Shown one piece after another: positions 4,061 to 51,956 of a DNA stretch of 64,000 bases. The stretch comes from Bacteroidales bacterium (GTDB taxonomy: Bacteria > Bacteroidota > Bacteroidia > Bacteroidales > UBA1715). Both the position numbers and the translations under genes were made by a program. Every line of letters starts with the position of its first letter. Position 1 is the first letter of the stretch. The notes beneath the pieces are model-generated. The model had not been told where the DNA came from. It saw only the letters and a program-made list of their open reading frames with translations, and did not search any database. The stretch covers positions 2,330-66,329 of the forward strand of contig JAAYPM010000112.1 of assembly GCA_012519815.1 (NCBI GenBank). Reading direction: 5' to 3'.

Positions 4061-4063
4061 CGT

Positions 4064-5143: not shown

Positions 5144-5193
5144 TTACCACATAAACATAATTCAAGTAAATAGCATTAGCATATAACAATGTG

Positions 5194-6432: not shown

Positions 6433-6697
6433 ATATATAAATTATTGTACAAATTATATAAAAATATTTGAAATTATTGGTAAATAAAAAAAAATTTATA
6501 TGTTTGCAACTGCAATACACATGATGCTATGAATTTTTTTATACAATGTAATATGTTTACTTGATATGAAGAACTTTTTGTTTTTCTCATATACTATATA
6601 TTGGAAAAATAGGGAGTTTATATTTTCTTCTCTCGTACTCATCGAAAATACCACGGTACCTGCCGCAAAAACAAGTATAAACATAAAAAAAATCACC

Positions 6698-7489: not shown

Positions 7490-7519
7490 AAAGTATGTGC
7501 AATTTTAAAATATAAAGAA

Positions 7520-26658: not shown

Positions 26659-29600
26659 ATGTTGAGAAAATCAACCTGGTCTTTAATTATAATAGCTGCC
26701 ATTTTTATCTTGCCTGTAACATTATTTACACAAGATGAAAGTTCTACACGTAGTATTTATAAGAGTATGGACAAATTATTATCCATGCAGCAATACGAAC
26801 AGGCAATGCCTCTTATTGAACAATTACTTGAAATAAGTCCTGATAATGCTAATTATAATTTTAAAATGGCATATGCAATTATTCGTTCTGCAAATAAACA
26901 AAGTCCATTGCCATATCTCGAAAAGGCAATTCAAAATATTACTTCTCGGTATCGTTCTCGTGTAAATGAAACCGCCGCTCCAACAGATGCTTTATGGTTT
27001 ATTGGGCAGCATTTTTTTAATGAATATAATTATGAACGCGCCGAAGGTTATTTAACACAATATCTTACACATATAAATTCATTGCATATGAATTATTCAG
27101 CATGCAAAGAAAAAATTGCAAGCTGTAAAACGGGTCTTGAGCTTATGAAAGAACCTGTGCATGTTACAATTTCTGATTTTAGTGAAGCAGTAGGTATTCA
27201 AACATATTTTCATAGTGGATTGTTTTCGCCCGATGAATCAATGTTTATTTTTACTGCCGATTCGTATTTTTACAATGACAATGTAAATAATGGACGAAAA
27301 GCACATAACGACGACATTTACATTATATACAAAAAAAATGATGTGTGGAGTAAGCCAAAACCTTTGAGTTCTAATATTAATTCGGAACTAAAAGAAGCAA
27401 GTGTTGGTATGCATCCTAACGGAAAAATGCTTCTTGTATATCGCGAAGATCCTGAGTGTGGTAATTTGTATTATTCTGATTTAATTGACAGTAGTATATG
27501 GTCGCCATTAAAAAAATTTCCCGCACCAATAAATTCTTCGGCAAATGAAACGCATGCAACAATTTCTGCCGATGGAAAAGTTATATATTTTACTTCGGAT
27601 AGAGAAGGCGGGTATGGAGGATTAGATATTTATATGTCGCGACTAAATCGTGATGGCACTTGGGGAGCAGCAATAAATATGGGAGCAGCAATTAATTCTT
27701 CGCATCACGAGGAAAGTCCACATTTTCAGGCAAATAGCAATCTATTGTATTTTAGTAGTAATCGTCCCGGTGGAATGGGAGGGTTTGATGTGTATAGAGC
27801 AGAAATTTCTCAAGATAGTATTGTGTTAGATGTGAAAAATATGGGATATCCTATAAATACTCCACAATATGATATGTTTTTTAAAACAAGTTATGACGGA
27901 GGAAAAGCCTATTATTCATCAGCTTGCACTGCTACAAATGGCGAATATGATTTGCAAATAGTTGCATTTGAAGACAAAAAATTATATCCGAATGCTATGG
28001 TGCAAGGGCTTGTTATTACTCAAAATAACGATACTCTTAAAAATAAAGATGTATATCTTTTTAATCTTACAACGCGTTCTATAACCGACTCTGCGCAATT
28101 AGATCCTGCAACGGGATATTATGTTTGTAATCTTCATTCAAAAAATTCGTATTTTATTTCGGTTGCTCACGAAGGGTATGTATATTATTCTAAACCGTTT
28201 CAACTTTCAGAATATTTTTCTGATTATACCTTTGAAAATACTATTATTCTTGACCCGATTTATATAACAGATTCTACCTTACGCCAAAATGAAGGAATGT
28301 TTACGGTGTTTAAAAATAATCTTACAGTAGATGATGATGATGCGCTATATGATACGGTAACGAATGTGTTTGCAGTTTCGCATTCAATACAACCACAAAA
28401 ATTGTCGCGTTTGCAAACAACTATAGACGAAGAAGCTCAAAAACAACATTATGATTATGTTTTAGCACAAGAAAATGTGATTGTACCCACACTCATACCA
28501 GAAAACAACGAACTCATTTCTGATTATCCTACACATCCTCCTGATACTATTGATGAACTATCTTCTATAATGCAAGTAGTGCAGGGAGCCGAAAATCAAC
28601 CTTTGCCACGAAAATCCCAACAAAAATCTATACCAAAAGTTGTTGATGCCGCATTTGCTGATTCTCTTCTTACAAGCGGAGTTGCAAACCTTCAATTTGG
28701 ACAATATAATGCTTCTGAAAATGATTTGCGTAAAGCAAAATATTTGTATGATTCCTTGCAAGATGTGTCAAAACAATTAGTGTGTTTGGATTATTTAACA
28801 GAAAACCAACGAAATATTGGGCAATTAAATAACGCTCTTGAGCTTCAATTAGAATCTCTTTCGTTAATGGAAAAAAATGCAAGTGAACAAGAAATTGCTG
28901 CAAAACAAAAACAGTTAGCGTATATGTACGATGAACTTTGGTATAAAGATGAGGCAATAGATTTGTTTGAAAAAAATTTAGAAGCACAAAAAAAACAAAA
29001 TAATAAAGAGGGTGTTACCGATGCGTATTTTGATATTGCAGATGTGTATATGCAACATAACGAACAAGAAAAAGCAATTGCGTTGCTCAAAGAATCCCTT
29101 GAACATATAGCTTCTCAAAAAAAACAAGCCGAAGCGTATAATAAAATAGGAGTTTCATATCATCAATTATATGAATATGTACAGGCAATTGGGTACTATA
29201 ACAAAGCTATTTTAACAGCAGATGCAATTAATGATTTAGAAGGATTAACATTATATCATACTAATATTGGAAATGCGTTTTATGATAACAACGATTTTCA
29301 AACCGCTATGCATCATTATGATATTTCTTTAGAATTATATACAACTTTACGTAATGAGCGAGGAATTGCAATTGCGTATTATAATATTGGAAATGTAAAT
29401 AAAGAACAAAAAAAGCATACTGTTGCAATAGAAAATTTTACACAAAGTATAGAAAGAGCTGCTAAAATAAAAGATAATGCTATTCTTTCAAAAAATTACT
29501 TTGCATTAATGAATGTATATAAATCTCTTGCAAATTATAAATTAGCGTTGTCGTATTATCAAAAATATTATAAACTTCAAAATGTAGGATTTTTGTATGA

Positions 29601-31164
29601 TTCTCAAATTTCAGAAGTGAACCAAAAATATCCAATAAACCAAACACAAATTCAACTTCTTGAAACGCAAATGAAGCGTACTTCTGATTTGTATGCATTT
29701 GAAAAACGAAAATATGAACAAGAATTACATCTTTTATATGAACGTGAAAAATTGCTGTATATATCAAAAATTGCAATTGGTATTGTATTAATTGGTGCTG
29801 TTTTATTGTTGATTTTATTGTTGTTCCGATTTAGAACTCGCCGTAAATACTACACACGTTTGTCGTTGCAAAATGCAGAAATTCTTCAAAAACAAGAGGA
29901 AATTACTGTTCAAAGAGAAAATTTAGAAACGCTTAATTATCAGTTAGAGCAATTATCGATAGTGGCAAGTAAAACTGCAAATGCTGTTGCTATTATTACA
30001 CCAAATGGAGATGTTGAATGGGTAAATGATGCATTTTTGAACTATTATTCTGAACAACCAAAAAACTTTTTTGATTTCTCAAAATCCGAAGATGAAAAAT
30101 CACAACTCACACATTCTATTCAAAATAAAACCTCGGTGTTATACGAGGTGCAACGAGTTCAAAATGAAAGTTTAGTGTGGATTCAATGTATGGTTACTCC
30201 AATAGTTAATAATAATGAATTGTCGAAACTTATAATAATAGAATCTATTATTAATGAATTAAAATTACGCGAAATAGAAATTAAAACACAGCGTGACGAA
30301 ATTCTTGTTCAAGCACAAGAGATTGAAAAACAACGAGATATTGCAGTTTATCAAAATAAAGAAATTCAAAAACAAAAAGAATCTATTGAAAGTTCTTTAG
30401 AAGAATTGCAGATAACTCAAAAGAAATTAATTGAATCCGAAAAAATGGCTTCTTTAGGAAGTTTGGTCGCTGGTATTTCGCATGAAATTAACACTCCCGT
30501 TGGTATTGGTGTTGCTGCAACAAGTTCGCTCAGTTCTAATACAGAATCATTAAAAGAATTATTTGAATCACGAAAAATGAAACAATCTGATTTGCAAAAT
30601 TATATTGTTTCAACGCAAGAAGCAACAAATCTTATTCGCTCAAATCTTGAACGTACAGGCGAATTGGTGAAAAGTTTTAAACGCATTTCGGTTGATGAAA
30701 TGACAGATCAAAAAAGACTGTTTAATATGCGTGAATATATACACGAAGTGCTTACAAGTTTAACGGCAGAAACCGCAGAACGTACTATTCAATATAATAT
30801 TGACTGTCCTGATGATATTGAAATTACTAATTATCCTGCTGCCTTTGCAAAAATTATTTCGAATATGATGAAAAATGTGTTGCTGCATGCTTATACAAAA
30901 GAGCAAACACATGAAATTTCTATAGTGGTTCGCATAATTGATAATTCGTTGCATTTCCAATTTTCTGATAAAGGAAAAGGAATGTCTCCTGATGTTGTGC
31001 AAAAAGTGTTTAATCCTTTTTTTACAACAAATATGCAGCTTGGTAAGGGGTTAGGAATGAGTGTGGTATATAACACTGTAACAAATCAATTAAAGGGTGA
31101 AATTTCATGTGAAAGTGCCGAAAATGAAGGCACAAGCTATCATATTATTGCTCCCTTATTATAA
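26659..31164 (+). CDS. Giant sensor histidine kinase: signal, TPR, PD40/TolB-like repeats, CarboxypepD_reg-like domain, long TPR array, one TM, PAS, coiled coil, HisKA, HATPase
   Basis: 1501 aa. PD40-type motifs are ISADGKVIYFTSDREGGYGGLDIY and LLYFSSNRPGGMGGFDVY. The TM is at about aa 1036-1058 (IAIGIVLIGAVLLLILLLF). The H-box is AGISHEINTPVG (His ~1275). The C-terminal ATPase has the G-box-like GKGLGMSV. Confidence 0.85.
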   Translation: MLRKSTWSLIIIAAIFILPVTLFTQDESSTRSIYKSMDKLLSMQQYEQAMPLIEQLLEISPDNANYNFKMAYAIIRSANKQSPLPYLEKAIQNITSRYRSRVNETAAPTDALWFIGQHFFNEYNYERAEGYLTQYLTHINSLHMNYSACKEKIASCKTGLELMKEPVHVTISDFSEAVGIQTYFHSGLFSPDESMFIFTADSYFYNDNVNNGRKAHNDDIYIIYKKNDVWSKPKPLSSNINSELKEASVGMHPNGKMLLVYREDPECGNLYYSDLIDSSIWSPLKKFPAPINSSANETHATISADGKVIYFTSDREGGYGGLDIYMSRLNRDGTWGAAINMGAAINSSHHEESPHFQANSNLLYFSSNRPGGMGGFDVYRAEISQDSIVLDVKNMGYPINTPQYDMFFKTSYDGGKAYYSSACTATNGEYDLQIVAFEDKKLYPNAMVQGLVITQNNDTLKNKDVYLFNLTTRSITDSAQLDPATGYYVCNLHSKNSYFISVAHEGYVYYSKPFQLSEYFSDYTFENTIILDPIYITDSTLRQNEGMFTVFKNNLTVDDDDALYDTVTNVFAVSHSIQPQKLSRLQTTIDEEAQKQHYDYVLAQENVIVPTLIPENNELISDYPTHPPDTIDELSSIMQVVQGAENQPLPRKSQQKSIPKVVDAAFADSLLTSGVANLQFGQYNASENDLRKAKYLYDSLQDVSKQLVCLDYLTENQRNIGQLNNALELQLESLSLMEKNASEQEIAAKQKQLAYMYDELWYKDEAIDLFEKNLEAQKKQNNKEGVTDAYFDIADVYMQHNEQEKAIALLKESLEHIASQKKQAEAYNKIGVSYHQLYEYVQAIGYYNKAILTADAINDLEGLTLYHTNIGNAFYDNNDFQTAMHHYDISLELYTTLRNERGIAIAYYNIGNVNKEQKKHTVAIENFTQSIERAAKIKDNAILSKNYFALMNVYKSLANYKLALSYYQKYYKLQNVGFLYDSQISEVNQKYPINQTQIQLLETQMKRTSDLYAFEKRKYEQELHLLYEREKLLYISKIAIGIVLIGAVLLLILLLFRFRTRRKYYTRLSLQNAEILQKQEEITVQRENLETLNYQLEQLSIVASKTANAVAIITPNGDVEWVNDAFLNYYSEQPKNFFDFSKSEDEKSQLTHSIQNKTSVLYEVQRVQNESLVWIQCMVTPIVNNNELSKLIIIESIINELKLREIEIKTQRDEILVQAQEIEKQRDIAVYQNKEIQKQKESIESSLEELQITQKKLIESEKMASLGSLVAGISHEINTPVGIGVAATSSLSSNTESLKELFESRKMKQSDLQNYIVSTQEATNLIRSNLERTGELVKSFKRISVDEMTDQKRLFNMREYIHEVLTSLTAETAERTIQYNIDCPDDIEITNYPAAFAKIISNMMKNVLLHAYTKEQTHEISIVVRIIDNSLHFQFSDKGKGMSPDVVQKVFNPFFTTNMQLGKGLGMSVVYNTVTNQLKGEISCESAENEGTSYHIIAPLL

Positions 31165-31179
31165 TAAAATATCCTTATT

Positions 31180-31671
31180 TTAGATATTGTGTTTTTTAAC
31201 TTTACGTGTATCAGTGCATGCAGCTAACAGTTCTAATTGTGTTTTTTGTAATATAGGATGAATAAAATCAGGAACACATTCCACAAGTGGCAACAATACA
31301 AATTTTCTATTTTGAATATACGGATGAGGAATTGTGAGAGTTTCTGAATCTATAATCTGCGAATCATAATATAGTATGTCAATATCAATAGTGCGAGATT
31401 CATAACCATGAAATGATGAGCGTTCACGCCCATGCAAGCTTTCTATATGCAAACATTGATGCAAACACTCATGAGGCGACAATGTTGTTGTGATAATAAG
31501 GAGCTGATTAAAAAAAAAATGTGAGTCATCAAATCCCCAAGGTTCACTTTCAAAAACACTTGATTGCAAAATAATATTTCCTATGGTATGGTGCATTTCA
31601 TTACGCACATTTTCAAATGTTTGTAATATATTACCTCTATTAGCTCCTAAAATAACAATAAGCGTATGCAT
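31180..31671 (-). CDS. folK: 2-amino-4-hydroxy-6-hydroxymethyldihydropteridine diphosphokinase
   Basis: 163 aa. Contains RTIDIDILYY and LTIPHPYIQNRKFVLLPL. Confidence 0.9.
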   Translation of the reverse strand: MHTLIVILGANRGNILQTFENVRNEMHHTIGNIILQSSVFESEPWGFDDSHFFFNQLLIITTTLSPHECLHQCLHIESLHGRERSSFHGYESRTIDIDILYYDSQIIDSETLTIPHPYIQNRKFVLLPLVECVPDFIHPILQKTQLELLAACTDTRKVKKHNI

Positions 31672-31764
31672 GTACTATAATGATTATAACTCTTTGATTA
31701 TTTCGATAAGAAAACTACCTTTGTATAGTTCAAAGTATAGACAAAATTCAACAAAAAAAACGAA

Positions 31765-33543
31765 ATGAAAAAATTTTTGAAATATGTATTTGCCACTTTT
31801 ACGGGCACTGTGTTAGGAATTTTTGTGATTGTATTAGTTATAGGTGGTGTTATATTGAGTACATCTGGATTGTTTAAAGAACAAACAATTACAATTCCCG
31901 ATAATGCTGTATTAGTAATTTCACTGCAAGAAAAAATAAGCGAAAAAACAATTCATAATCCTTTTGATTCATTTTCGCCAACCGAAAATTCTTCAACTAT
32001 TGGGGTGTTTGATATTTGCCAAAGTATTCAAAATGCAGCAAAAAACGATAAAATTAAAGGTATTGTGCTTTTGCCGAATGTTATAACTGCACAATATTCA
32101 AGTGTGCAAGAAATTCATAAAGCTTTAGTAGATTTTAAACAAAGTGGAAAATTTATATATAGTTATGCCGACATATACTCTCAAAAGGGATATTTATTAG
32201 CAAGTGTTGCCGATAAAATATTTATGAACCCAGAAGGTATGTTTGAACTTAAGGGCATTGTGTCAAATACAATTTTTATTACAGATGTGTTAGAAAAAAT
32301 AGGTATTGAACCCGTTCTTTTCCGTGCTGGAAAATATAAAAGTGCTGCCGAAAATATTACACGTACAAATATGAGCAAGGAAAATCGCGAACAGACGTTT
32401 GCGTTTATTTCTGATGTTTGGAAACAGTATCAACTAAGTATTACAACAAATCGCCCAGCATTATGTGATAATTTTTCAACTATTGTTGATTCATTATTAG
32501 TTTGGAATGCAGAAAGTGCTCATACGTATGGATTTATTGATTCAATTGCATATTATGATTCGTTTCTTTCACATGTTCGAGCAGAGCTTGCAATTAATGA
32601 GACGAAAAAAATTCCTCAAATATCGCTTCAGGATTATATTTCATATATGCAACAGCAACAAACTTTAAAAACAAAATCAGAAGGGAAAATTGCACTTATT
32701 ATTGCAGAAGGTTCTATAGATATGGGCGAAGGCGATGATTCCAGTATTGGTAGCTCGGTATATACTCGTATTATTCGTAATGCTCGACAAGATACAACTA
32801 TACAGGCAATTGTGCTTCGTATTAATTCGGGAGGTGGGTCGGCTCTTGCTTCAGAAATAATTTGGCGCGAGGTGGCATTAGCAGCTCAAACAAAACCTGT
32901 AGTTGTTTCTATGGGCGATTATGCCGCATCGGGAGGATACTATATTGCAACCCATGCCCATACAATTGTAGCAGAGCCATCAACACTTACAGGCTCTATT
33001 GGCGTGTTTGGTATGTATATGAAAACAAATAGTCTTATGCAAAAAATAGGTGTTCATATAGATACTGTAAAAACAAATACTTTTTCTGATTTTGGTTCTA
33101 CAACACGCGATATGCATTCTCGAGAAATTGCGGTAATTACTACCAGTATTGATTCAATATATTCTACGTTTAAACAACGTGTTTCTGAAGGTAGAAATTT
33201 ATCTCTTTCTACAGTTGAGGCTCTTGCTCAGGGCAGAATATGGAGCGGCACACAGGCTCTTGATCTTGGATTAATAGACTCTTTGGGAGGCGTTTTTACA
33301 GCAATTACTATTGCTGCCGAAAAAGCAAATATTGTAGATGATTATTCAATTCAAATATTCCCAAAATCTAAAAGCTATATAGAAATGCTTACGGAAAGTT
33401 TTATGGATTCTAACAATGCGTTTTATGCACATATTGAATCAATTTTTGGAAATGATACGCGTGCCATATATTCATATTTGAAATATATTCCTAAAAAAAA
33501 TGGAGTATATATGCAAGCACCATATACACTTACAATTGAATAA
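31765..33543 (+). CDS. sppA: Signal peptide peptidase SppA, 67K type
   Basis: 592 aa with an N-terminal TM and two tandem S49 (ClpP/crotonase-like) halves. Contains GDYAASGGYYIA and LTGSIGVFG. Confidence 0.9.
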   Translation: MKKFLKYVFATFTGTVLGIFVIVLVIGGVILSTSGLFKEQTITIPDNAVLVISLQEKISEKTIHNPFDSFSPTENSSTIGVFDICQSIQNAAKNDKIKGIVLLPNVITAQYSSVQEIHKALVDFKQSGKFIYSYADIYSQKGYLLASVADKIFMNPEGMFELKGIVSNTIFITDVLEKIGIEPVLFRAGKYKSAAENITRTNMSKENREQTFAFISDVWKQYQLSITTNRPALCDNFSTIVDSLLVWNAESAHTYGFIDSIAYYDSFLSHVRAELAINETKKIPQISLQDYISYMQQQQTLKTKSEGKIALIIAEGSIDMGEGDDSSIGSSVYTRIIRNARQDTTIQAIVLRINSGGGSALASEIIWREVALAAQTKPVVVSMGDYAASGGYYIATHAHTIVAEPSTLTGSIGVFGMYMKTNSLMQKIGVHIDTVKTNTFSDFGSTTRDMHSREIAVITTSIDSIYSTFKQRVSEGRNLSLSTVEALAQGRIWSGTQALDLGLIDSLGGVFTAITIAAEKANIVDDYSIQIFPKSKSYIEMLTESFMDSNNAFYAHIESIFGNDTRAIYSYLKYIPKKNGVYMQAPYTLTIE

Positions 33544-33544
33544 T

Positions 33545-34600
33545 ATGCGAATAATTCGATATGTGTTGTTTCCTTTTTCGTGCATTTATTGGTGCATTAC
33601 TTATATTCGAAATGTGATGTTTGATAAAGGAATTATTTCGCAATCGGCATTTCCAATTCCCATTATTTCATTTGGCAATATTACCGTAGGAGGAACAGGG
33701 AAAACGCCTCATACACAGTATCTTATTTCTAAATTGCAACATACACATTCTGTGGCAACATTAAGCAGAGGGTATAAACGTAAAACAAAAGGATATGTTG
33801 ATACAACACAAACAGAAATAACTCCTCAAATTATTGGTGACGAGGCTTTTATGACTCACAAAAATTTTCCAAATTGCATTGTTGCGGTTTGTGAAAAACG
33901 TGTTGTTGGAGTGCAATCAATTCTTACAAAGCATCCTCATATAAATTGTATAATTCTTGATGATGCGTTTCAGCATCGGCATATTTTACCCGGTTATCAA
34001 ATTCTTCTTGTTGATTATACTCGTCCTATTTGGAACGATTTTGTGTTTCCAACAGGGAATTTACGCGAAGGAACATATGCTGTTGCTCGTGCACATGCAG
34101 TTATAGTAACAAAATGCCCGTTTATTACCGATGATATAAAAAAAATGTGGAGAAAAAAATTGCGATTACAAGCACATCAAAAACTCTTTTTTTCATCTAT
34201 TTCGTACGGAAAACCATATGCAATGTTTTCAAAAAAACATGTTGATTCTTTATCAAAACTTCTTGAAAATAAGCATGTAATACTTATAACAGGTTTAGCA
34301 CGTGCCGATTCATTGTATCAATATATACAAACATATACCGCAAATTTAGTTCATTTTGAATATCCCGACCATTATGAATATACCACAACCGATATTGCTG
34401 ATATTGTGAATGCAACTAAAAATATATCGGAATATGTTATAGTAACTACCGAAAAAGACATGCATAAATTACATTTTGCAGGTTTGCCTGATACCGTTAA
34501 CGGATATGTGATACCAATAGAACCTACGTTTGACGATGAATCAGCTTTTTTACAGGAAATTACCAATTATCTTTCACAAAATTCACTTAAAAACCAATGA
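33545..34600 (+). CDS. lpxK: Tetraacyldisaccharide 4'-kinase
   Basis: P-loop GNITVGGTGKTP and ILDDAFQH. The start at 33545 (MRIIRYVLFPFS) is preferred over the ORF-track start at 33500, which overlaps sppA. Confidence 0.9.
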   Translation: MRIIRYVLFPFSCIYWCITYIRNVMFDKGIISQSAFPIPIISFGNITVGGTGKTPHTQYLISKLQHTHSVATLSRGYKRKTKGYVDTTQTEITPQIIGDEAFMTHKNFPNCIVAVCEKRVVGVQSILTKHPHINCIILDDAFQHRHILPGYQILLVDYTRPIWNDFVFPTGNLREGTYAVARAHAVIVTKCPFITDDIKKMWRKKLRLQAHQKLFFSSISYGKPYAMFSKKHVDSLSKLLENKHVILITGLARADSLYQYIQTYTANLVHFEYPDHYEYTTTDIADIVNATKNISEYVIVTTEKDMHKLHFAGLPDTVNGYVIPIEPTFDDESAFLQEITNYLSQNSLKNQ

Positions 34601-35181
34601 ACTTTTTAGCACATTCATTTTTATCGGGACAAAATAATTTTATACTTATTGGTAATTTTATTGGAGATTTTGTAAAAGGGAAACAGCACGAAACATATCA
34701 AAAAGAAATACAACAAGGTATTCTTTTACACAGATTTATTGATAGTTTTACCGACAACTCGGCTATTACAAAAGAAAGTAAAAAAATATTTGCTTCAGTG
34801 TATGGAAAATACGCTGGAATAATTGTAGATATTATATATGATCACTGTTTATCGGTGCATTGGAATTCTTATACACATGTTCCTCGCAAATTATTTATTG
34901 CACATGTGTATAAAACTTTATCGGTCTATCATCATATTTTGCCGCTTCGGGCACAGCAACTTATTATTTCAATAATACATCATAACTGGATGCAATATTA
35001 TGTGTCATTTTATGGTATAAAAACCGTGTTGCAAAAAATGGCAACTCGCACAACTTTACCAGAACATTCAGATGAATGTGTTCAAATTTTGAGAGATAAT
35101 TATGCAATTTTGAATGAACAATTTCAAGAGTTTTTTCACTCTATTCTATTAGAACTCAATTTTACAACAACGAAAACGTAG
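34597..35181 (+). CDS. acpH: Acyl carrier protein phosphodiesterase
   Basis: 194 aa. N-terminus MNFLAHSFLSG...GNFIGDFVKG is typical of AcpH. It overlaps the lpxK stop by 4 nt. Its last 161 bp lie inside direct-repeat copy A. Confidence 0.85.
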   Translation: MNFLAHSFLSGQNNFILIGNFIGDFVKGKQHETYQKEIQQGILLHRFIDSFTDNSAITKESKKIFASVYGKYAGIIVDIIYDHCLSVHWNSYTHVPRKLFIAHVYKTLSVYHHILPLRAQQLIISIIHHNWMQYYVSFYGIKTVLQKMATRTTLPEHSDECVQILRDNYAILNEQFQEFFHSILLELNFTTTKT

Positions 35182-35246
35182 ATAAAATTTCAATGATTTT
35201 GTCCTTTTTAATAGGTTTTGCAATATAATCGTAGCAACCTAAATCT
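35021..35246. repeat. Direct repeat copy A (226 bp): functional acpH 3' end plus an orphaned copy of the hybrid-kinase 3' end
   Basis: Aligns without gaps to 39392-39617 at a constant offset of 4371, with 9 mismatches (about 96% identity). Confidence 0.95.
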
Positions 35247-35963
35247 CCTGACTTCGTCAATGCGACACCCATTTAAGATTGATTCCAAAAATCAATTTCA
35301 AACAGTTTAGAAATTAATTTGTGTTTTTCTATTATTAGCATAGTTTTAGAGATTGTTTCGTTGCTTTCTTGTGTTTTATCCTTCTGAGTGTCAGAGAGCT
35401 AATCTAAATAACGATAAATCTTATTTAAATCAATATTTTCATCAAAATAAGACTTTAAATAATCGACTGTGGCAACTTTGCTTTGTGGTTGACATATACG
35501 AGATACAACTAAATGCTTCAGGATATCGTCGTTAATTTGATCAAAACCAATGTTTTTATAAATAGGATTTAATATTAATTGAGTTCCGTTTATTAAAATG
35601 TGTTTTATCTTATTTAAAAGGCCTTCTACAACAAGTTTTTCTTCTTCTTGACGAATATGGTCTAAGAACATATCACGTCCTTTAGTCTGTTCCGAAACCC
35701 ATTTTTTTCCTTGTGAATATAGATTATCAATTTCAACAGGATTAGAGTTTGTACCAATTGTTTTAAGATAGCGAATCTTGCCGTTACGTTTCTCGACAAT
35801 TACAACGGTTGTGCTTCCTGATCTATTTGGTTTTTTGCGAACATACATTCTCCAAATTTAGCTGATTTTTTCTTGCGACACCCAAAAAGGTACCGCAAAA
35901 TTTGCAATCCCTTAGTAATCATAACATTATAAATTTATAGAAAAATAAGTGATAAAGTCAGGA
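35246..35963 (-). mobile_element. Internally deleted IS remnant with terminal inverted repeats (IS1634/IS4-like)
   Basis: Tips TCCTGACTT (35246-35254) and AAGTCAGGA (35955-35963) are exact reverse complements. Only 718 bp lie between them, encoding a 149-codon transposase stump. Confidence 0.75.
35399..35848 (-). pseudogene. Truncated DDE transposase (N-terminal 149 aa only), IS1634/IS4-like
   Basis: The N-terminus MYVRKKPNRSGSTTVVIVEKRNGKIRYLKTIGTNSNPVEI resembles Bacteroidota IS1634-family transposases, which are several-fold longer. No DDE core is present. Confidence 0.6.
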
Positions 35964-35978
35964 GGTTGGATTTTCTGA

Positions 35979-36047
35979 CTTGGATATTTTAGTGCCTGCT
36001 TTTTTAAACGCTATGGTATAAAACCATCAGACTATATACGCAAATAA
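35979..36047 (+). pseudogene. C-terminal fragment of an AraC-family HTH regulator gene
   Basis: Translates to LGYFSACFFKRYGIKPSDYIRK*, the characteristic AraC second-helix tail. It is preceded by an in-frame stop and has no start codon. Confidence 0.5.
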
Positions 36048-36296
36048 ACAGTCCTCCATTTTAGTATAGACACCTTGTGTGTAAAATTGCGTGTTGTTAT
36101 TTTTTTGAAAATATTTTGTAGTCGCAAAGAATAATTTTATATTTATTGAAACAAATACCAAAGTCTGTTTTATGCGAAATCAAATAAAAATGATTAAATA
36201 TAAAATTAGATCACCTTAAAAAATAAAATTATTTAACAAAATAATTTTATGTGTAAAAGCTATTATATATAAGTAAAAATTTTTAAATTTTATAAC

Positions 36297-37358
36297 ATGA
36301 AAAAATATATTTCCATATGTTTATTAATGTTTAATATAACATTTATCTATTCTCAAATTCCTGAAAATGATGATAATTGGCAGCTTGAATTTGAGGATGA
36401 ATTTACTATACCAACATTATTAGATACTTATTATTCTCCTAGAGTTTATGTTAATTCTCTAATACATGGGGATTGTGCTGTGAGTTGTACACAAGAACTT
36501 CAATGCTATCAAAAAGCAAATATTGAATATCAAGATGGAATTTTAAAATTGGTTGCTAAAAAAGAAAGAATCTATGAAAGATTAAATGTATTTGAACCAG
36601 AAACCGCTATTTTAAGTGATGGTATACAAAACAAAAGATGGTTTGATTATACCTCTGGAGCAATAATGACACATTCCAGAGAATCCTATGGTTATTTTGA
36701 AATTCGATGCAAAATACCAAAAGGAAAAGGTTTTTGGCCTGCATTTTGGTTATATCACGATCCTGGTTGTAATAAAGGTCGGGAAATAGATATCTTAGAG
36801 TTAAATGGAGAAGCTTCTATTACTGCTAATAATTATGGTGCGACTATACATTATTCATATATTTCTGGTACTGAATGTAAAGGCGGTTCAAGTGGTATGC
36901 AAATTCAGAATTTACCAGATTTGTCACTAGATTATCATACATATTCTGTAGAATGGACTCCTAGTAAAGTATTGTTCTATTTAGATAATAAATTAGTGAG
37001 ATTTTTAAATCATACATACGTACCTTCTGAAGGTATGCATATTATCGTAAATTTAGCAATTGACCCATGGTATTCTCCAAATTTTTCTAATTTCGTATCG
37101 AAATCATTAGATATTGATTATATTAAATATTATAAACTAAAAATGGATTGTGGAGATCCAATTACCTCAAGCGAAGGTAATAACTTCAATTTCTCAAATT
37201 TTGATTATAAAGTAAAAAAATCATTTTCAATAAATAATTCAACACTAATTATAGGCTCTAAAGTTACATTAAGAGCAACAGATTTTATTGAATTTACTCA
37301 GAATTTTAATGTTCCAATTGGTGCTGAATTCAATGCAATTACAGTTCCGTGTCACTAA
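36297..37358 (+). CDS. Secreted glycoside hydrolase family 16 (beta-glucanase/laminarinase-like)
   Basis: Signal peptide, GFWPAFWLY, and the catalytic ExDxxE motif in GREIDILELNGE. The ~80-aa C-terminal extension ends VTLRATDFIEFTQNFNVPIGAEFNAI. Confidence 0.85.
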   Translation: MKKYISICLLMFNITFIYSQIPENDDNWQLEFEDEFTIPTLLDTYYSPRVYVNSLIHGDCAVSCTQELQCYQKANIEYQDGILKLVAKKERIYERLNVFEPETAILSDGIQNKRWFDYTSGAIMTHSRESYGYFEIRCKIPKGKGFWPAFWLYHDPGCNKGREIDILELNGEASITANNYGATIHYSYISGTECKGGSSGMQIQNLPDLSLDYHTYSVEWTPSKVLFYLDNKLVRFLNHTYVPSEGMHIIVNLAIDPWYSPNFSNFVSKSLDIDYIKYYKLKMDCGDPITSSEGNNFNFSNFDYKVKKSFSINNSTLIIGSKVTLRATDFIEFTQNFNVPIGAEFNAITVPCH

Positions 37359-37384
37359 TTAAATAATTTTAAAACTAAAGAAAA

Positions 37385-38369
37385 ATGAAAACAATTAATA
37401 TATTAATTACAACAGTAATTTTATTAATCAATGTAGATTTATATTCTCAAATCAATGTGGATAATGTTGGAGATGTCTCAATTGGACAGGTAATTTACAC
37501 AAAAAAACATAACTTAGGTTATCGTACAATAGAACTAAAATCTCCTAATTGGGATGGGGGATTTATAATTGATAAGTCAGGATATAATAGTATGTCAACC
37601 TTTAGACCTAATACAACTTGGTATGGGTCTCTAGGTACAAGTTCTTATCATTTTGGTGTTGGGTATATTGAACATATATATACTTGGATTTTAACGAATT
37701 ATTCAGATGAGCGATTGAAGGAAAACATTGAAAATATCGAAACTCCATTAGAAAAAATAATAAAATTAAATGGAGTCACATATAATTTGAAAGATTCTAA
37801 TAATATAGAACTTGAATCCAGCGAATATAAAGATCAATCTTTTAAAAAAAAGCAAATTGGTTTTCTTGCTCAAGATTTACAGACGGTTTTTCCTGATCTT
37901 GTTTTTCAAGAATCTGATTCTTCAGAATATTGTATTAATTATATTGGTTTAATTCCTGTGCTTGTTGAATCAATTAAAGAACAACAATCTATGTTAAATT
38001 GAGCAGGAACAGAAGATTAATGAGCTTACAAATTTGTGTAATAATAAAGATAAACAATTAAAAAGTGAAACTAATACAGAAATATTTGAAGATAATAAAA
38101 ATCAATTAAATGCTATTTTATATCAAAATCGTCCAAATCCTTTTGATAGTAAAACAGAAATATTGTGTACTATTCCATTAAATGCATCCTCCGCACAGTT
38201 ATTTGTATATAATTTAGAAGGAATGCAATTAAAAAAAATTGAGATTTTAGACAAGGGTGTTACAAGTATTATTATAGATGGTTCCGCATTGAAAGCAGGA
38301 ATGTATTTGTATACATTAGTTGTTGATAACCTTGAGATTGCAACAAAAAGAATGATTTTAACTAAATAA
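37385..38369 (+). pseudogene. Frameshifted gene: signal peptide, S74 intramolecular-chaperone (tail-fibre C-terminal) domain, coiled coil and T9SS type-A C-terminal sorting domain
   Basis: ORF 37385-38002 carries YSDERLKENIENI...GVTYNLKD...IGFLAQDLQTVFPDLV...LIPVLVESIKEQQ (S74 chaperone domain). Its natural continuation, IEQEQKINELTNL..., runs in the adjacent frame from 37998. ORF 38034-38369 in that frame ends with a T9SS CTD (LYQNRPNPFDSKTEI...LFVYNLEGMQL...GMYLYTLVV...KRMILTK). Confidence 0.7.
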
Positions 38370-38380
38370 TTAAATTAATT

Positions 38381-38941
38381 ATGAAAACTTTAATAAACCT
38401 TTCTCTAATTACACTCGTGTTTTTATGTTTTTTTTCATGCGATGAAAAAGTAGCCCCCCCCAAAAAAACTTATAATTATTTAAAATATAATCCACCAAAA
38501 GTATTGTATCCTAATGATTCAATTCTAATTGATTTAAACAACGATAATTTTAATGATGTGATAATTAAATCATTTTTATTTATAGACTTACCTGATACGA
38601 TACTTAAAAATACCATTTCTATTATTGATACTAGTTTTAAATTAAGTTATGGTCAAAGATATAGTAGTTATTTTGAATTTATTTTAAATGGTGATAGGGT
38701 AAATCCGCAGAATGTTCATTGGTCACAAGAAATACCTATAAGTGGCTATATTAATAGTGTGTCAACGGGTATCTGGAATGATAATAATAATGAAGATAAA
38801 TATTTAGCAATTTTAAAGTGTGATAATGAATTAGTAAAAATGGGTTGGTTAATGTTATCATGTACAGATTCTTCTATAACTTTAAAAGAATTTTATATGA
38901 ATAATATTTCTAATTCTCAAATTATTATTGGAACAAAATAG
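38381..38941 (+). CDS. Hypothetical lipoprotein
   Basis: 186 aa. Signal plus lipobox (LVFLCFFSC). No recognisable domain. Confidence 0.55.
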   Translation: MKTLINLSLITLVFLCFFSCDEKVAPPKKTYNYLKYNPPKVLYPNDSILIDLNNDNFNDVIIKSFLFIDLPDTILKNTISIIDTSFKLSYGQRYSSYFEFILNGDRVNPQNVHWSQEIPISGYINSVSTGIWNDNNNEDKYLAILKCDNELVKMGWLMLSCTDSSITLKEFYMNNISNSQIIIGTK

Positions 38942-38954
38942 CCATAATACATAG

Positions 38955-39131
38955 CTAAAACCGTTATGGGCAAGCTTTAAAAAACTCCTTTCAAAAACAG
39001 ACGATGAATGGTTTGACATAGTATGTGAATTAATTAACAATAAAAACACACGAAAAACAATAATTGAACGCTATTCTATTGATGCGTTTGTAGAAAAATA
39101 TATTGTTTTATTTCATAAACTTGTACAATAA
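38955..39131 (+). pseudogene. C-terminal fragment of a glycosyltransferase-like gene
   Basis: A 58-codon open frame without a start codon: ...DEWFDIVCELINNKNTRKTIIERYSIDAFVEKYIVLFHKLVQ*. It resembles the C-terminal tail of GT-B glycosyltransferases. Confidence 0.35.
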
Positions 39132-39190
39132 AGAAATCTTTATCGTATTTCTGAAATACTCCCTATTGTTAGGACAGTTTTGTTATCTTT

Positions 39191-39391
39191 TTAAGATAGC
39201 GAATCTTTCCGTTGCGTTTCTCGACAATCACAACGATTGTGCTTCCTTATCTATTTGGTTTTTTGCGAATATACATTCTACAAAATTAGCTGATTTTTAT
39301 TTGCGACACCCAAAAAGGTGTCGCAAAATTTACAAGTCCTTAGTAATCAGAGCATTATAAATTGACAGAAAAATAAGTGATAAAGTCAGGA
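39191..39391 (-). mobile_element. Second, 201-bp fragment of the same IS end (transposase 5' end plus terminal repeat), same orientation as the first
   Basis: Aligns without gaps to 35763-35963 (offset 3428) at roughly 90% identity. It ends in the same tip AAGTCAGGA (39383-39391), directly abutting repeat copy B. The transposase ATG is retained at 39276, but a stop occurs at codon 10. Confidence 0.85.
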
Positions 39392-39617
39392 AAACCGTGT
39401 TGCAAAAAATGGCAACTCGCACAACTTTACCAGAACATTCAGATGAATGTATTCAAATTTTGAGAGATAATTATGCAATTTTGAATGAACAATTTCAAGA
39501 GTTTTTTCATTCTATTCTATTAGAACTCAATTTTACAATAACGAAAATGTAGATAAAATTTCAATAATTTTATCTTTTTTAATAGGTTTTGCAATATAAT
39601 CGTAGCACCCTATATCT
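39392..39617. repeat. Direct repeat copy B (226 bp): orphaned acpH 3' end plus the functional hybrid-kinase 3' end
   Basis: See copy A. This copy supplies the last 28 codons and stop of the 39533-43129 gene. Confidence 0.95.
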
Positions 39618-42600
39618 TCAGCAATTGCACGTTCAGCATTCAAATCAAATGCCGAAAGAATTACAATAGAAACATTTTTATTATGGCGTAAAATTTCTTT
39701 GCTTGCTTCAAAACCGTCCATAACGGGCATTTTAATATCCATAAATATAAGTTGAATAGTAGGGTTTTTTAGAAACAATTCAACAGCCTCTTTTCCTGTA
39801 TGTGCACGTATAACGTGTATGTGAGCAAAAGCAAGAAGAGTTTGTATATATAAAAAATTTATATCATCATCTTCGGCAACCAACACTGTGTGTTCATCTT
39901 GTGTAGCAATTTGAGTGTCTTTTGTTGCTGTTTTTGTTTCTGTGAATGTGTAAGGAATAGTAAAATAAAATGTTGAACCTTCCCCTTCTGTTGATTCAAC
40001 CCACATTGTTCCACCTAAAAGAGAAGCAATTTTATATGAAATTGCCAAGCCTAAACCTGTGCCTCCATATTGCTTTGTTTGTGCATCTGTAATCTGCTGA
40101 AAACGTTCAAAAATAGCACTTTGATATTTTTGTGGTATTCCAATACCTGTATCTTTTACAAAAAATACAATGTGCTTATTTTCCAATACATATCCCACTT
40201 CAATAGAGCCAGAATCGGTAAATTTAATGGCATTACTCATTAAATTTAAAACAATTTGTTTTATGCGAGTTTTGTCAGATATAATTGAAGCTTCAGTGTT
40301 TTTTAATCCATGAGAAATACGTAGTTGCAAATTTTTTTCTTGTATTTGAGGAGCAAAAAAATCGGTAGTTTCTTGAATGAGTTCATGTATATTTACTGTT
40401 TCTGAATGAATATACAATGTATTGCTTTCAATTCGGGATATATCTAAAATATCATTTACAACTACCAATAATTGTTTACTGCTGCTAATTACTATGTCAG
40501 CATATTTTTTGCGTAATTCAAAACTCAAATAGGGGTCTTTTAAAAATTCGGCAAAGCCAACTATACCGTTCATTGGAGTGCGGATTTCATGGCTGATATT
40601 TGCTAAGAAAACCGATTTTAATCTATCACTTTCTTCTGCTTTTTCTTTTGCTGACACAAGGTCTTCGAGCAATAATTTTTTTTCAGTTACATCTTCATTA
40701 ATAGCAACAAAATGAGTTATTTCTCCTTCGGCGTTAATAATAGGGGTAATTAAACCTTTTTCCCAATACAGTTCGCCTGTTTTTTTTATGGTTTGAAATT
40801 CGCCTTCCCAATCGTTTCCTGAAGTAACCGTTTCCCAAATATTTTTATAAAATGCTTCTGATTGTGTTTCTACCTTAAAAAAAGAAGGTTTTGTTCCGAG
40901 TACCTCATCAATTGTATAGCCACTTATTTCACAAAATTTTGCATTTACATATTCTATATCTCCATTATTATTTGTAATAATAGTACTTACCGGACTTTGC
41001 TCAATAGCTTTACTTTGTAAAATAGTTTGTTTAAGTGCTTCTTTTTTGTCGGTTACATCATGCACAATAGAATGTGTATATACCGTTCCTTTTATTTCAA
41101 TAGGACTGCTATATACTTCTACATCACGAATTGTTCCATCTGCTTTTCGGTGCTGAAAATCAAAAAAAGTGAGGTTTTTATCTTGTGCTTCAACAACTTT
41201 TTCCACAATTTTGTCATACGAAAGTGTATCAACTTCGGTGATTTTCATTTTTAAAAACTGTGCTTTATCCCACCCGTAATAATCAACAGCAGCTTTATTT
41301 ACATTAATAATATCGCCGCTCATAGGTTCAACAAGAAATTGAATAGCGGTATGGTCTTCAAATTGTTTTCTATATATTTCTTCGCTTTCTAAAAGTGCTA
41401 ATTCTGTTTGTTTCCGTTCAGATATATCTTCTATATATCCTTCAATAGCAATTATGTTTCCATGTTTATCAAATACACCATTTCCACGTTCCCATACCCA
41501 TTTTATGGTTTCGTTTTTACACACAATTCTGTATTCAAGCAAAAAGCTCTCTTTATTTTTAATAGCAGTTTTAATTACTTTATTTACATATTCAGCATCA
41601 TCTTTATGGGTAATTGAATTGTATGTTACTGATTTACTTATAAAATCAAAAGGAGTATATCCAGTTAGTTCGGTAACCCCAGAACTAACAAATTCCATAT
41701 GCCAATTTTCATCATACGTACCATGATAAAACATTCCCGGCAAATTAGAAAACAGCGACTCTAATTTACGATTGCTTTCTTCGAGTTCTTGTAATATTTG
41801 TCGTTCTTTAGTTTGATTATGAATCACAAATACAAGTCCGGTAATTACAGAATTATTGTCTCTAATAGGAGCAATACTTTCGTTTATAGGAATACTTTGT
41901 TGTTGATGTGTGCGCAGTTGAGCATGATATAGTGTGTGTTTTTTTCCTGTTGTTATTACATGTTGTATAATTTCGGAATGTGTGCTATTATTTTGTTCTT
42001 GTGTTATCGTAAATAAATCATCAATATATTTATGCTTAGCCTTTGCTTCAGTACAACCTATTAATTCTTCGGCTATACCATTCACATTTTGTACTATACC
42101 TAATTCATTTGTTACAATTACAGCATCGCCAATACTATACAACATAGTTTTATATTGTTCTTGTAGCATATACATTTTTTTATACATGCTTTGCTTTTTA
42201 TTTGACTTTTGCAGCAAAAACACAAACACAAAAAGCAACACCACAACAATGAAAAGAACAATTATATATATTTGAGATTCAATTTGTTGGGCATAAAATT
42301 CATCGGCAGGTAAAATAGTATATATATAAAGATTTGTATGCTTTATATTATGTACCACAAATAAATCTTGTTTTTTAAATAATGAGTTTTTTTGAGAAAC
42401 TTGCCCTGTATATAAATTGTTTTTTTTAATAGAATCAAGTACGCTATACGACATAAAAAAGGAATCATGCGAATAGCGTTCGATTTTATGTGTTGCATAA
42501 TTATAGTGTACTAAAGAAGAATTTGCTTGAAAAAATATATTTGTGAATGTACTTCGAGATACATCTGTAAGTGTTTTTTGTGCAAGTGTTTTTTTGATTG

Positions 42601-43129
42601 TTTGAGAAACAGCATGTTGAAAAACCAAAAAACCTAATCGTTCATCTGCTTCGGAAAATAAAGGCACCACAAAATCAACTACTATAAGTGAGTCTGTATT
42701 ATAGTATATATCAGAAACATGTACGGTTTGTTTCGAAATAGTTTCATATTTTACATCATAGTTAAATTGCAATTTTGCTATTCTTTCTGATTCTGAAGAA
42801 AAAGAAGAGTCTATAAAAAAGATACTTGCAATATCATGTTCTTCGGCTATAAGAGAAAGGAATTTTTTTATTTGTACATAATTTTTCTCAGAAAAATATT
42901 GAGAAACAAATGTTTGTATATATGGATTCTGAGCCAGTAACTTAGCATCGGCAATTTCATCCATATACCAATCAGATATTTGCTTCGATTTTAATGAATT
43001 AACAGCCGAAATATATGAATACGTGTTTGATTTAAATGCAGCATTTTGATGTTGAATATATACCCAAACACCTCCACATAAAAGTAGAAAAACAGCAATA
43101 AATATGAATGTTGTTTTATTACGAAACAT
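39533..43129 (-). CDS. Hybrid sensor histidine kinase/response regulator with a periplasmic sensor domain and multiple PAS domains
   Basis: 1198 aa. Two TM segments flank a ~260-aa periplasmic region, followed by about four PAS/PAC units, the H-box ANISHEIRTPMNGI, an HATPase (GGTGLGLAISYKI) and a C-terminal receiver (LIFMDIKMPVMDG). No DNA-binding output domain. Confidence 0.9.
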   Translation of the reverse strand: MFRNKTTFIFIAVFLLLCGGVWVYIQHQNAAFKSNTYSYISAVNSLKSKQISDWYMDEIADAKLLAQNPYIQTFVSQYFSEKNYVQIKKFLSLIAEEHDIASIFFIDSSFSSESERIAKLQFNYDVKYETISKQTVHVSDIYYNTDSLIVVDFVVPLFSEADERLGFLVFQHAVSQTIKKTLAQKTLTDVSRSTFTNIFFQANSSLVHYNYATHKIERYSHDSFFMSYSVLDSIKKNNLYTGQVSQKNSLFKKQDLFVVHNIKHTNLYIYTILPADEFYAQQIESQIYIIVLFIVVVLLFVFVFLLQKSNKKQSMYKKMYMLQEQYKTMLYSIGDAVIVTNELGIVQNVNGIAEELIGCTEAKAKHKYIDDLFTITQEQNNSTHSEIIQHVITTGKKHTLYHAQLRTHQQQSIPINESIAPIRDNNSVITGLVFVIHNQTKERQILQELEESNRKLESLFSNLPGMFYHGTYDENWHMEFVSSGVTELTGYTPFDFISKSVTYNSITHKDDAEYVNKVIKTAIKNKESFLLEYRIVCKNETIKWVWERGNGVFDKHGNIIAIEGYIEDISERKQTELALLESEEIYRKQFEDHTAIQFLVEPMSGDIINVNKAAVDYYGWDKAQFLKMKITEVDTLSYDKIVEKVVEAQDKNLTFFDFQHRKADGTIRDVEVYSSPIEIKGTVYTHSIVHDVTDKKEALKQTILQSKAIEQSPVSTIITNNNGDIEYVNAKFCEISGYTIDEVLGTKPSFFKVETQSEAFYKNIWETVTSGNDWEGEFQTIKKTGELYWEKGLITPIINAEGEITHFVAINEDVTEKKLLLEDLVSAKEKAEESDRLKSVFLANISHEIRTPMNGIVGFAEFLKDPYLSFELRKKYADIVISSSKQLLVVVNDILDISRIESNTLYIHSETVNIHELIQETTDFFAPQIQEKNLQLRISHGLKNTEASIISDKTRIKQIVLNLMSNAIKFTDSGSIEVGYVLENKHIVFFVKDTGIGIPQKYQSAIFERFQQITDAQTKQYGGTGLGLAISYKIASLLGGTMWVESTEGEGSTFYFTIPYTFTETKTATKDTQIATQDEHTVLVAEDDDINFLYIQTLLAFAHIHVIRAHTGKEAVELFLKNPTIQLIFMDIKMPVMDGFEASKEILRHNKNVSIVILSAFDLNAERAIAEDIGCYDYIAKPIKKDKIIEILSTFSLL

Positions 43130-43305
43130 TATTAAAATATATGCATAAATTATTTAAATAGTTTCAAATATATTATAAAGTACCGAAAAAACAACTATAT
43201 TTACGAGAGATTTATATGTGTAAATTTACTTGAATTTTATATTTATTTTGTTTCTAAAAAAAAAACAATTATTTTTAAACAAAAATAGGGTATTCAATAC
43301 AAAAT

Positions 43306-47061: not shown

Positions 47062-47130
47062 AATTCCTTTTAGGGAAAATACATGTTTATTTGTCATTTG
47101 ATATACAATGTTTAAATTTAATTCTTACGT

Positions 47131-51036: not shown

Positions 51037-51086
51037 AAATTAAAAGTATATTGCACTCTATTTGTTTTTATATATAAAAATTATTC

Positions 51087-51956
51087 ATGCAATTTTTTAC
51101 GCCTCGTATATGGAGTGAGTATCAATTAATTGATTCTGGAAACTTTGAAAAACTTGAACGATTTGGGAAAATAATTTTACAACGACCAGAAACTAATGCT
51201 ATATGGAATAAATCTCTTTCAGATAATGAATGGAAAAAACAAGCACATATTCGTTTTAATGAAACATCAACTAATAGCGGTGAATGGATAAAAGCAGATT
51301 CTATTCCTGATGCTTGGCAAATTTCTTATGATTTGTTTTCAGTTACTTGCAATTTAAAACTTACGGCATTTAAACATATAGGTATATTTCCAGAACAGGC
51401 TGTAAATTGGGAGTATATTCATACAATTTGTAAAAAAAATCAAAATGTACGTGTTTTAAACTTATTTGGATATACCGGAATTGCATCTGTTGTAGCACGT
51501 GCTGCTGGTGCACATGTTACTCATTTAGATTCTATTAAACAGGTGGTGCATTGGACACGAAAAAATATGGAAGATTCAAATCAATCTGATATTCGATGGA
51601 TTATTGAAGATGCACGAAAATTTGTGAGCAAAGAAATAAAACGAGGCAACACATATAATGGAATTATTATGGATCCTCCTGCATTTGGAAGAGGTACGCA
51701 TGGAGAAGAATGGAAATTAGAACGTGATTTGCATAATTTATTAAAAGATGTTGAGAGAATTTTAGATAAAAAAAACTATTTTTTTATCCTTAATACATAT
51801 TCTCAGGGATTTACGCCTTTTATTATTAAAGATTTATTGCATTCAATTTTCATAAATCATGCTGCTCCAAAGGAATTTGGAGAATTATACATACCTGATA
51901 CATTTCAAAAAAAATTACCCTTAGGCGTTATCGGACGATTTACAAATTTACTGTAA
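51087..51956 (+). CDS. Class I SAM-dependent methyltransferase (RlmI/RlmK-like)
   Basis: 289 aa. Motif I-like LNLFGYTGIASV and motif IV IIMDPPAFGRG. Confidence 0.7.
   Translation: MQFFTPRIWSEYQLIDSGNFEKLERFGKIILQRPETNAIWNKSLSDNEWKKQAHIRFNETSTNSGEWIKADSIPDAWQISYDLFSVTCNLKLTAFKHIGIFPEQAVNWEYIHTICKKNQNVRVLNLFGYTGIASVVARAAGAHVTHLDSIKQVVHWTRKNMEDSNQSDIRWIIEDARKFVSKEIKRGNTYNGIIMDPPAFGRGTHGEEWKLERDLHNLLKDVERILDKKNYFFILNTYSQGFTPFIIKDLLHSIFINHAAPKEFGELYIPDTFQKKLPLGVIGRFTNLL

Follow-up and report, generated by a model that had tools for sequence, protein, structure and literature searches.

IS1634 of Mycoplasma mycoides (Vilei et al. 1999) and IS1549 of Mycobacterium smegmatis (Plikaytis et al. 1998) are the described insertion sequences (ISs) closest to the elements considered here. 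Both are cited as cases of long repeats, with direct repeats of 8–514 bp, for which, according to the passage of a 2008 paper that deals with them, there was at that time no mechanistic model (PMC2266710). Other members of the IS1634 family, for example, ISGka5 of Geobacillus kaustophilus, make AT-rich duplications of 5–6 bp (PMC2266710, PMC8024623). Nothing relevant on IS1634 in Bacteroidota was found in the searchable literature, and the duplications of 18–789 bp observed around the Bacteroidota clade discussed below were not found described there.

The locus under study lies in the window (the whole stretch of 64,000 nucleotides of contig JAAYPM010000112.1 that was analysed). A repeat search of the window revealed a direct repeat, with copy A at 35020–35246 and copy B at 39391–39617 (offset 4371, identity 96%); its length is 226/227 bp. 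The two copies bracket an insert with IS1634-family termini, and the differences between them are concentrated in a place where a dead gene fragment appears to be under selection.

The duplicated ends of acpH and the kinase gene

The repeat involves two convergent genes that overlap by 20 bases. The acpH gene (34597–35181, plus strand) is intact and encodes an acyl carrier protein phosphodiesterase of 194 aa (Pfam ACP_PD, E = 1.9e-62, residues 1–182); its DNA coincides with that of the insert-free contig L001 across 34544–35227 without a mismatch. The hybrid sensor histidine kinase gene (39533–43129, minus strand) is also intact; its product of 1198 aa contains PAS domains, HisKA, HATPase_c, and a receiver domain (Pfam), and an exact-protein look-up found the same kinase in six other contigs. 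Copy A, which is flush with the IS right terminus, takes in the final 54 codons of acpH with the true 3′ end of this gene and, at 35162–35246 on the minus strand, an orphaned C-terminal tail of the kinase, namely 27 codons and a stop without a start codon. Copy B holds the kinase tail that is in use (39533–39617) together with a stranded piece of the acpH 3′ end that extends to 39552. Because the duplication spans both 3′ ends, both genes are complete, and beside each of them lies an orphaned fragment of its neighbour.

The minus strand of copy A at 35165–35245 translates to DLGCYDYIAKPIKKDKIIEILSTFSLL, followed by a stop codon, while the functional kinase ends in DIGCYDYIAKPIKKDKIIEILSTFSLL. 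An open frame across 27 codons is uninformative by itself. A functional orphan micro-ORF was considered and rejected, given that the frame has no start codon and an open run of this length is trivial. The orphaned tail is a fossil of the kinase allele carried on that flank.

A base-by-base alignment gives nine mismatches between the copies (35080, 35139, 35168, 35177, 35195, 35201, 35204, 35237, and 35242), seven of which are located in the kinase-tail segment 35162–35246. Six of these seven (35168, 35177, 35195, 35201, 35204, and 35237) are synonymous changes at the third position of kinase codons, whereas 35242 is a first codon position, where copy A reads TTA (Leu) and copy B reads ATA (Ile). 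Read as acpH codons, four sites give V/I, H/H, T/I, and T/M, that is, three nonsynonymous to one synonymous. Both counts agree with the initial annotation of this DNA, which had noted that six of the seven tail differences are at wobble positions, that only Leu/Ile at 35242 alters the protein, and that the acpH frame has the opposite ratio of 3:1.

Formal binomial and dN/dS-type tests indicate that the silent excess in the tail is beyond chance. The probability of at least six of seven mismatches falling at third positions is P = 0.0069; that of at least six of seven being synonymous, given the possible synonymous fraction, is P = 0.0003 if all changes are counted and P = 0.015 if only transitions are. 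By the Nei–Gojobori method, the kinase tail has 16.0 synonymous sites with Sd = 6 and 65.0 nonsynonymous sites with Nd = 1 (pS 0.375 versus pN 0.015; Fisher P = 1.5e-4).

The insert and target duplications of related elements

The insert between the copies is a unit of 4.14 kb, extending from 35247 to 39390/1, with IS1634-family termini at both outer ends. On the minus strand, the order is copy B, the left-end fragment of an IS, passenger DNA, a deleted IS copy, and copy A. The deleted copy (35247–35963, minus strand) is an internally deleted non-autonomous IS1634-family element with its right terminus at 35247–35260 and its left terminus at 35949–35963; within it, an ORF at 35399–35848 encodes 149 N-terminal residues of the transposase. 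The solo fragment at 39189–39391 (minus strand) represents the first ~203 bp of a second IS copy and is 91% identical to 35761–35963; its terminus, with the outer left-terminus motif at 39377–39390, abuts copy B. The IS right end, CCTGACTT, begins at 35247, exactly where copy A stops, and copy B begins exactly at the outer left IS terminus.

A motif scan of the window detected three IS ends only, one of them a right end (35247) and two of them left ends (35962 and 39390); the inverted termini are CCTGACTTCGTCAA at 35247 (plus strand) and CCTGACTTTATCAC at 35962 and 39390 (minus strand). The same scan found no further IS end or IS copy elsewhere in the window, and no intact transposase is present in it, only the 149-aa N-terminal fragment. 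The window copies, of 717 bp (internally deleted) and 203 bp (end fragment), are short of the 1.5–2.0 kb of the family. Since the IS left ends are only 91% identical, the two IS-derived parts come from different IS copies. The layout is that of a compound transposon: the segments 35247–35963 and 39189–39391 bracket passenger genes, and the duplication lies outside both.

The passenger DNA (~3.2 kb, 35964–39188, plus strand) encodes a GH16 glycoside hydrolase (36297–37358), a Peptidase_S74 protein with a T9SS-sorting domain (37385–38369), and a hypothetical protein (38381–38941), all on the plus strand and the first two assigned by Pfam. The Peptidase_S74 gene is split in the window by a frameshift at 37996, where an extra A relative to the L008, L024, and L025 contigs creates a stop and leaves ORFs of 205 and 111 aa. 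These three contigs keep the unsplit gene of 327 aa, and both states occur among metagenome contigs. The right end of the passenger, 38960–39132, resembles by eye the 3′ fragment of a gene (ending in EWFDIVCELINNKNTRKTIIERYSIDAFVEKYIVLFHKLVQ and a stop), possibly the C-terminus of a glycosyltransferase; if so, the passenger segment would have been excised from another locus.

Two further contigs, L027 and L030 (ERZ764730 and JGI 3300025737; positions 1–300), carry the same passenger genes beside an IS that has the undeleted interior from 35365 on, with 98.2% identity to the window. Therefore, the association of the IS with the passenger predates the deletion and exists in a second lineage. The 203-bp repeat shared by the two IS-derived parts was also considered as a second target duplication, made by a transposon consisting of the passenger DNA; this was rejected, as the passenger has no IS termini and one cut would have had to fall exactly on the IS tip.

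The transposase fragment of the window matches the NCBIfam model NF033559 (IS1634) over model positions 3–106 (E = 3.6e-7); its score of 29.6 bits does not reach the cut-off of 100, only 149 N-terminal residues being left. It is 67% identical over all 149 residues to full-length transposases of 514 aa, which themselves score 373–378 bits against the same cut-off. A search for relatives in one genome per species yielded 80 loci. The relatives have an element of 1.68 kb with a 514-aa ORF and the ends TCCTGACTT and AAGTCAGG, matching those in the window.

Three complete genomes are available among them (Limibacterium fermenti me31, an uncultured Bacteroides, and a Bacteroidales MAG), and all 11 IS copies that they contain are bounded by flush direct repeats with 0–3 mismatches each. 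The lengths of these repeats are 72, 75, 76, 194, 205, 244, 324, 486, 517, 609, and 742 bp. Nine further copies on other Bacteroidota contigs have flush repeats of 18–789 bp, while three or four copies with adequate flanks have none. About 20 of the roughly 25 copies with enough flanking sequence bear a duplication. The long repeats were found at loci L051, L053–L056, L061–L064, L077, and L082 and at L066, L072, L074, L081, L083–L085, L094, and L107. A 181-aa protein (P0002, 83% identical) was set aside as a test case for duplication: it belongs to a single fixed IS remnant without a right end. In Limibacterium fermenti me31 (NZ_CP159486.1), positions 3143–8447 of locus L053 form a tandem array T–IS–T–IS–T, in which both the 742-bp duplication (T) and the IS are repeated; this suggests amplification by unequal crossing-over between the long duplications.

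The flush fit with the IS termini, together with the long duplications around relatives, marks the 227-base repeat as a probable long target-site duplication. For this IS clade, a repeat of 226/227 bp would be an ordinary target-site duplication, presumably made by the transposition event itself. Target duplications that are long and vary in length seem to be characteristic of the entire clade; the stronger proposition, that a Bacteroidota-wide clade of the IS1634 family obligatorily makes target duplications of ~20–800 bp, we regard as evenly balanced between true and false. The duplications of the relatives are 99.5–100% identical, and the 96% in the window is what is unusual.

Alleles of the two copies in related contigs

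Contigs of the same population were recovered by exact-protein look-ups, and all of them come from biogas and anaerobic-digester metagenomes. Three contigs with an uninterrupted acpH/kinase junction (L001, L002, and L007) have the copy A alleles at the seven sites from 35080 to 35204; at 35237 and 35242 they have C and T, and they also carry a private GCC codon. Another uninterrupted junction, in the L009 contig, has the copy B alleles at all nine sites. Its acpH is 93% identical to that of the window, and it is a contig of 4.17 kb located between 100-N spacers in a concatenated MAG. The L010 contig, which is insert-free and has window-like flanks, likewise has copy B alleles at nine of nine sites; here the left flank of the window is joined to copy B without any copy A alleles. 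Rather than an independent insert-free genome, this contig may represent an assembly collapse or the outcome of excision, through crossing-over of copies A and B within 35020–35079. The insert-free L001 and L010 contigs differ in haplotype from the insert carriers.

The nearest neighbours of the copies are therefore different, L001, L002, and L007 for copy A and L009 and L010 for copy B. The initial annotation had held that the differences do not reflect neutral decay of a dead copy, and this is borne out, as seven of the nine are alleles in intact genes of other lineages. Its proposal that the copies diverged as functional alleles in different lineages stands for the seven sites at 35080–35204 and does not extend to 35237 and 35242, which are private to the orphan copy; correspondingly, five of the six wobble differences were shown to be inherited, the sixth being that at 35237. 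The two private variants, at distances of 10 and 5 bp from the IS right junction, stand in contrast to the 13.5 kb around them, in which carriers show no substitution. Either the lineage that received the insertion already had these alleles, or they may be gap-filling errors of the duplication.

Insert carriers are known from at least ten assemblies, all in the same A/B state and with one haplotype. One of them, the 115-kb contig L008, spans the whole structure with a sequence identical to that of the window, and no substitution separates the two over 13.5 kb (~34573 to 48073, spanning the insert). With no substitutions in 13.5 kb, the 4% difference between copies A and B cannot stem from in situ mutation. 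A duplicate that diverged in place, with the wobble bias due to chance, mutational bias, or selection on a functional orphan peptide, accordingly has almost no probability in our estimate: although the preference for G/C in copy A and A/T in copy B at seven of the nine sites could suggest AT-biased mutation, seven of the nine differences pre-exist in intact genes elsewhere, their random placement has a probability of 0.0003–0.015, and the orphan has no start codon. In situ neutral decay is contradicted by the same seven alleles.

The contigs also bear on whether the window might be a chimera of co-existing strains formed in metagenome assembly. The data come from metagenomes throughout; L009 is short and belongs to a concatenated MAG, and L010 joins the left flank to copy B with no copy A alleles. 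Moreover, the Logan contigs (L123–L129, L024, and L026) end at 35050 and 39420, ~30 bases into each repeat copy; the identical first 60 bp of the duplication break assemblies with k = 31, and such breaks are a practical sign by which long duplications can be recognised. However, each IS junction is contiguous in multiple independent contigs: copy A with its private alleles adjoins the IS right end in L003–L006, L025, L028, and L029, and copy B adjoins the IS left end in L011, L012, L024, L026, and L034–L036. As L008 covers everything with an identical sequence, an assembly artefact is very improbable.

The proposed history predicts a starting state in which both copies are identical; no carrier of this kind was found among these contigs, and the look-up of the copy-A-type 47-aa acpH fragment, which would mark a carrier with both copies of the A type, was empty. 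No single-site IS insertion occurs among the contigs recovered. In the JGI metagenome collection, a scan with exact 40-mers gave no match, and a protein-based scan found only acpH relatives of 36–39% identity.

The population is mosaic beyond the repeat itself. Relative to L001, the window has no differences over 27476–30900, differs by 4–5% over 30900–34543 (3.6 kb), and is identical again over 34544–35227. The divergent segment, with the HPPK, sppA-like Peptidase_S49, and lpxK genes, exists in at least three haplotypes (window/L010, L001, and L008) that are 4–6% apart. A divergent segment within flanks identical between strains indicates frequent recombination between lineages. The switch seen at 34543 is peculiar to L001 and not to the window, and so does not tell which flank was replaced. 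Short diverged patches inside otherwise identical sequence can also be noted at 47751–48366 (compared with L001) and 49573–51573 (compared with L008). The patch differences from L001 are often spaced by multiples of three, a pattern suggestive of allelic tracts in which most changes are silent.

The L009-type (B-type) allelic tract has a minimum extent of 39451–39676, with 13 differences from L001, and continues 59 bp past the repeat into unique kinase sequence. Elsewhere in the kinase gene, 40016 and 41053 are the only sites at which the window and L001 differ, and L009 and L010 carry the window alleles at all tract sites and at these two positions. The left limit of the tract is between 35058 and 35080 in repeat coordinates, which corresponds to the last 38–60 bp before the IS junction, the point beyond which an insert-free donor has no homologous sequence; its right limit is unrelated to the repeat boundary. 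The initial annotation had supposed that one copy arrived with the insert by recombination. This part is not upheld: the repeat is flush with the IS termini, relatives show duplications of 18–789 bp, and the B-type tract ignores the repeat boundaries, reaching 39676, 40016, and 41053.

The distribution of alleles raises the question of whether the duplication itself arose by inter-lineage recombination, either by a crossover between IS copies inserted at 35020 and 35246 or by import of the insert with a flanking copy. The left flank (acpH and copy A) is of the common, L001 type, and the right flank (copy B, the kinase, 40016, and 41053) is of the L009/L010 type; the two IS-derived parts, being just 91% identical, come from separate IS copies, and the absence of a carrier with identical copies among the recovered contigs fits as well. 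Nevertheless, a crossover between IS copies needs two independent insertions of one and the same IS, equally oriented and separated by 227 bp, both of which would interrupt a gene, whereas one insertion of this IS clade routinely yields flush repeats of this size and the single-site state was not seen. Such a crossover would give the same final map, yet it is much less parsimonious than a single transposition, and we consider recombination as the source of the duplication unlikely.

Proposed history and comparison with known systems

A long target duplication made by one transposition, followed by replacement of a flank from another lineage, is in our judgement the probable history of the locus. 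The 4.14-kb non-autonomous unit, whose outer ends come from two IS1634-family copies (the left terminus from the truncated one, the right terminus from the one with the internal deletion), would have transposed into the overlap of the convergent acpH and hybrid kinase genes. The target would have been cut at positions 226–227 bp apart, at acpH codon 142 and ~28 codons before the kinase stop, and gap filling would have duplicated the whole interval between the cuts, leaving two initially identical copies. Homologous recombination with a different lineage would then have exchanged one of the flanks, with a crossover that fell within the duplication, beside the IS junction at which homology ends. 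That one flank was replaced later is suggested by the A/B identity of 96% compared with 99.5–100% in relatives and by the highly mosaic population. The concentration of differences at wobble positions would follow because purifying selection acted on the kinase genes, functional in each of the separate lineages, while the differences accumulated.

More likely, the kinase side was overwritten by the L009/L010-type allele from about 39430–39451 rightwards; copy A would then have been left as the kinase allele resident at the time of insertion, which may have included Leu at 35242. Against this counts the need for a crossover in the last 38–60 bp of homology beside the IS junction. The acpH side may instead have been the one replaced, but this would involve a crossover within 23–42 bp of the junction and two new mutations. 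The variants at 35237 and 35242 fit the proposed history if they are alleles of an unsampled lineage or gap-filling errors, and otherwise count against it. Instead of transposition of the whole unit, a simple IS insertion may have come first and acquired the passenger DNA afterwards. The layout of the locus, its flush ends, the long duplications of relatives, the shared alleles, and the mosaic population were observed directly, whereas the sequence in which the events took place, which flank was replaced, and the movement of the 4.14-kb unit in one piece are our reconstruction.

If this history is correct, a dead gene fragment that seems to be selected has a simple explanation: the resident allele was preserved in the long target duplication, after which the live copy beside it was changed by recombination. 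Wobble-biased divergence of repeat copies can therefore indicate recombination between lineages and not function. The observations also document a Bacteroidota clade of the IS1634 type with regular duplications of hundreds of bases, and they are relevant to the annotation of pseudogene fragments, to breaks that repeats induce in metagenome assemblies, and to the mechanism of long target duplications. Should such duplication be a property of the whole clade, insertions near gene ends would leave genes undisrupted and would leave datable fossil alleles, while the repeats would offer homology for precise excision (possibly in L010) and for tandem amplification (as in L053 of Limibacterium). In that case, the many natural events and the cultivable host Limibacterium fermenti me31 would be available for the study of the mechanism, which was reported as unknown in 2008 (PMC2266710).

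Compared with IS1634 and IS1549, the window clade has, judged by its full-length members, a transposase of the same family (NF033559) and similarly long, variable flush repeats, 8–514 bp as cited for those elements, 227 bp here, and 18–789 bp in relatives. The differences concern the host, which is here an uncultured Bacteroidales bacterium from biogas reactors, and the element, since the window unit is non-autonomous, 4.14 kb in length, and combines an IS that has lost its interior with passenger genes and the 203-bp left end of another copy. In addition, the window copies are 4% diverged, while those of IS1634 and IS1549 are near-identical. With typical members of the IS1634 family such as ISGka5 (PMC8024623), the window clade shares, on the evidence of its full-length members, a DDE transposase of the same family, and also terminal inverted repeats; those members, however, make AT-rich duplications of 5–6 bp, whereas the duplications of the window clade measure tens to hundreds of bp.

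Compound transposons resemble the window unit in having passenger genes between two IS-derived segments and one target duplication around the whole. Unlike in compound transposons, the IS segments of the window are in direct orientation, 9% diverged, and neither is intact; therefore, the transposase must come in trans. Finally, mosaic recombination alleles of bacterial populations show the same sharp switches from 0% to 4–7% divergence, with mostly synonymous differences. What distinguishes the window from ordinary mosaic alleles is that the tract ends inside a duplication, so that the old and the new 227-bp alleles coexist in one genome.
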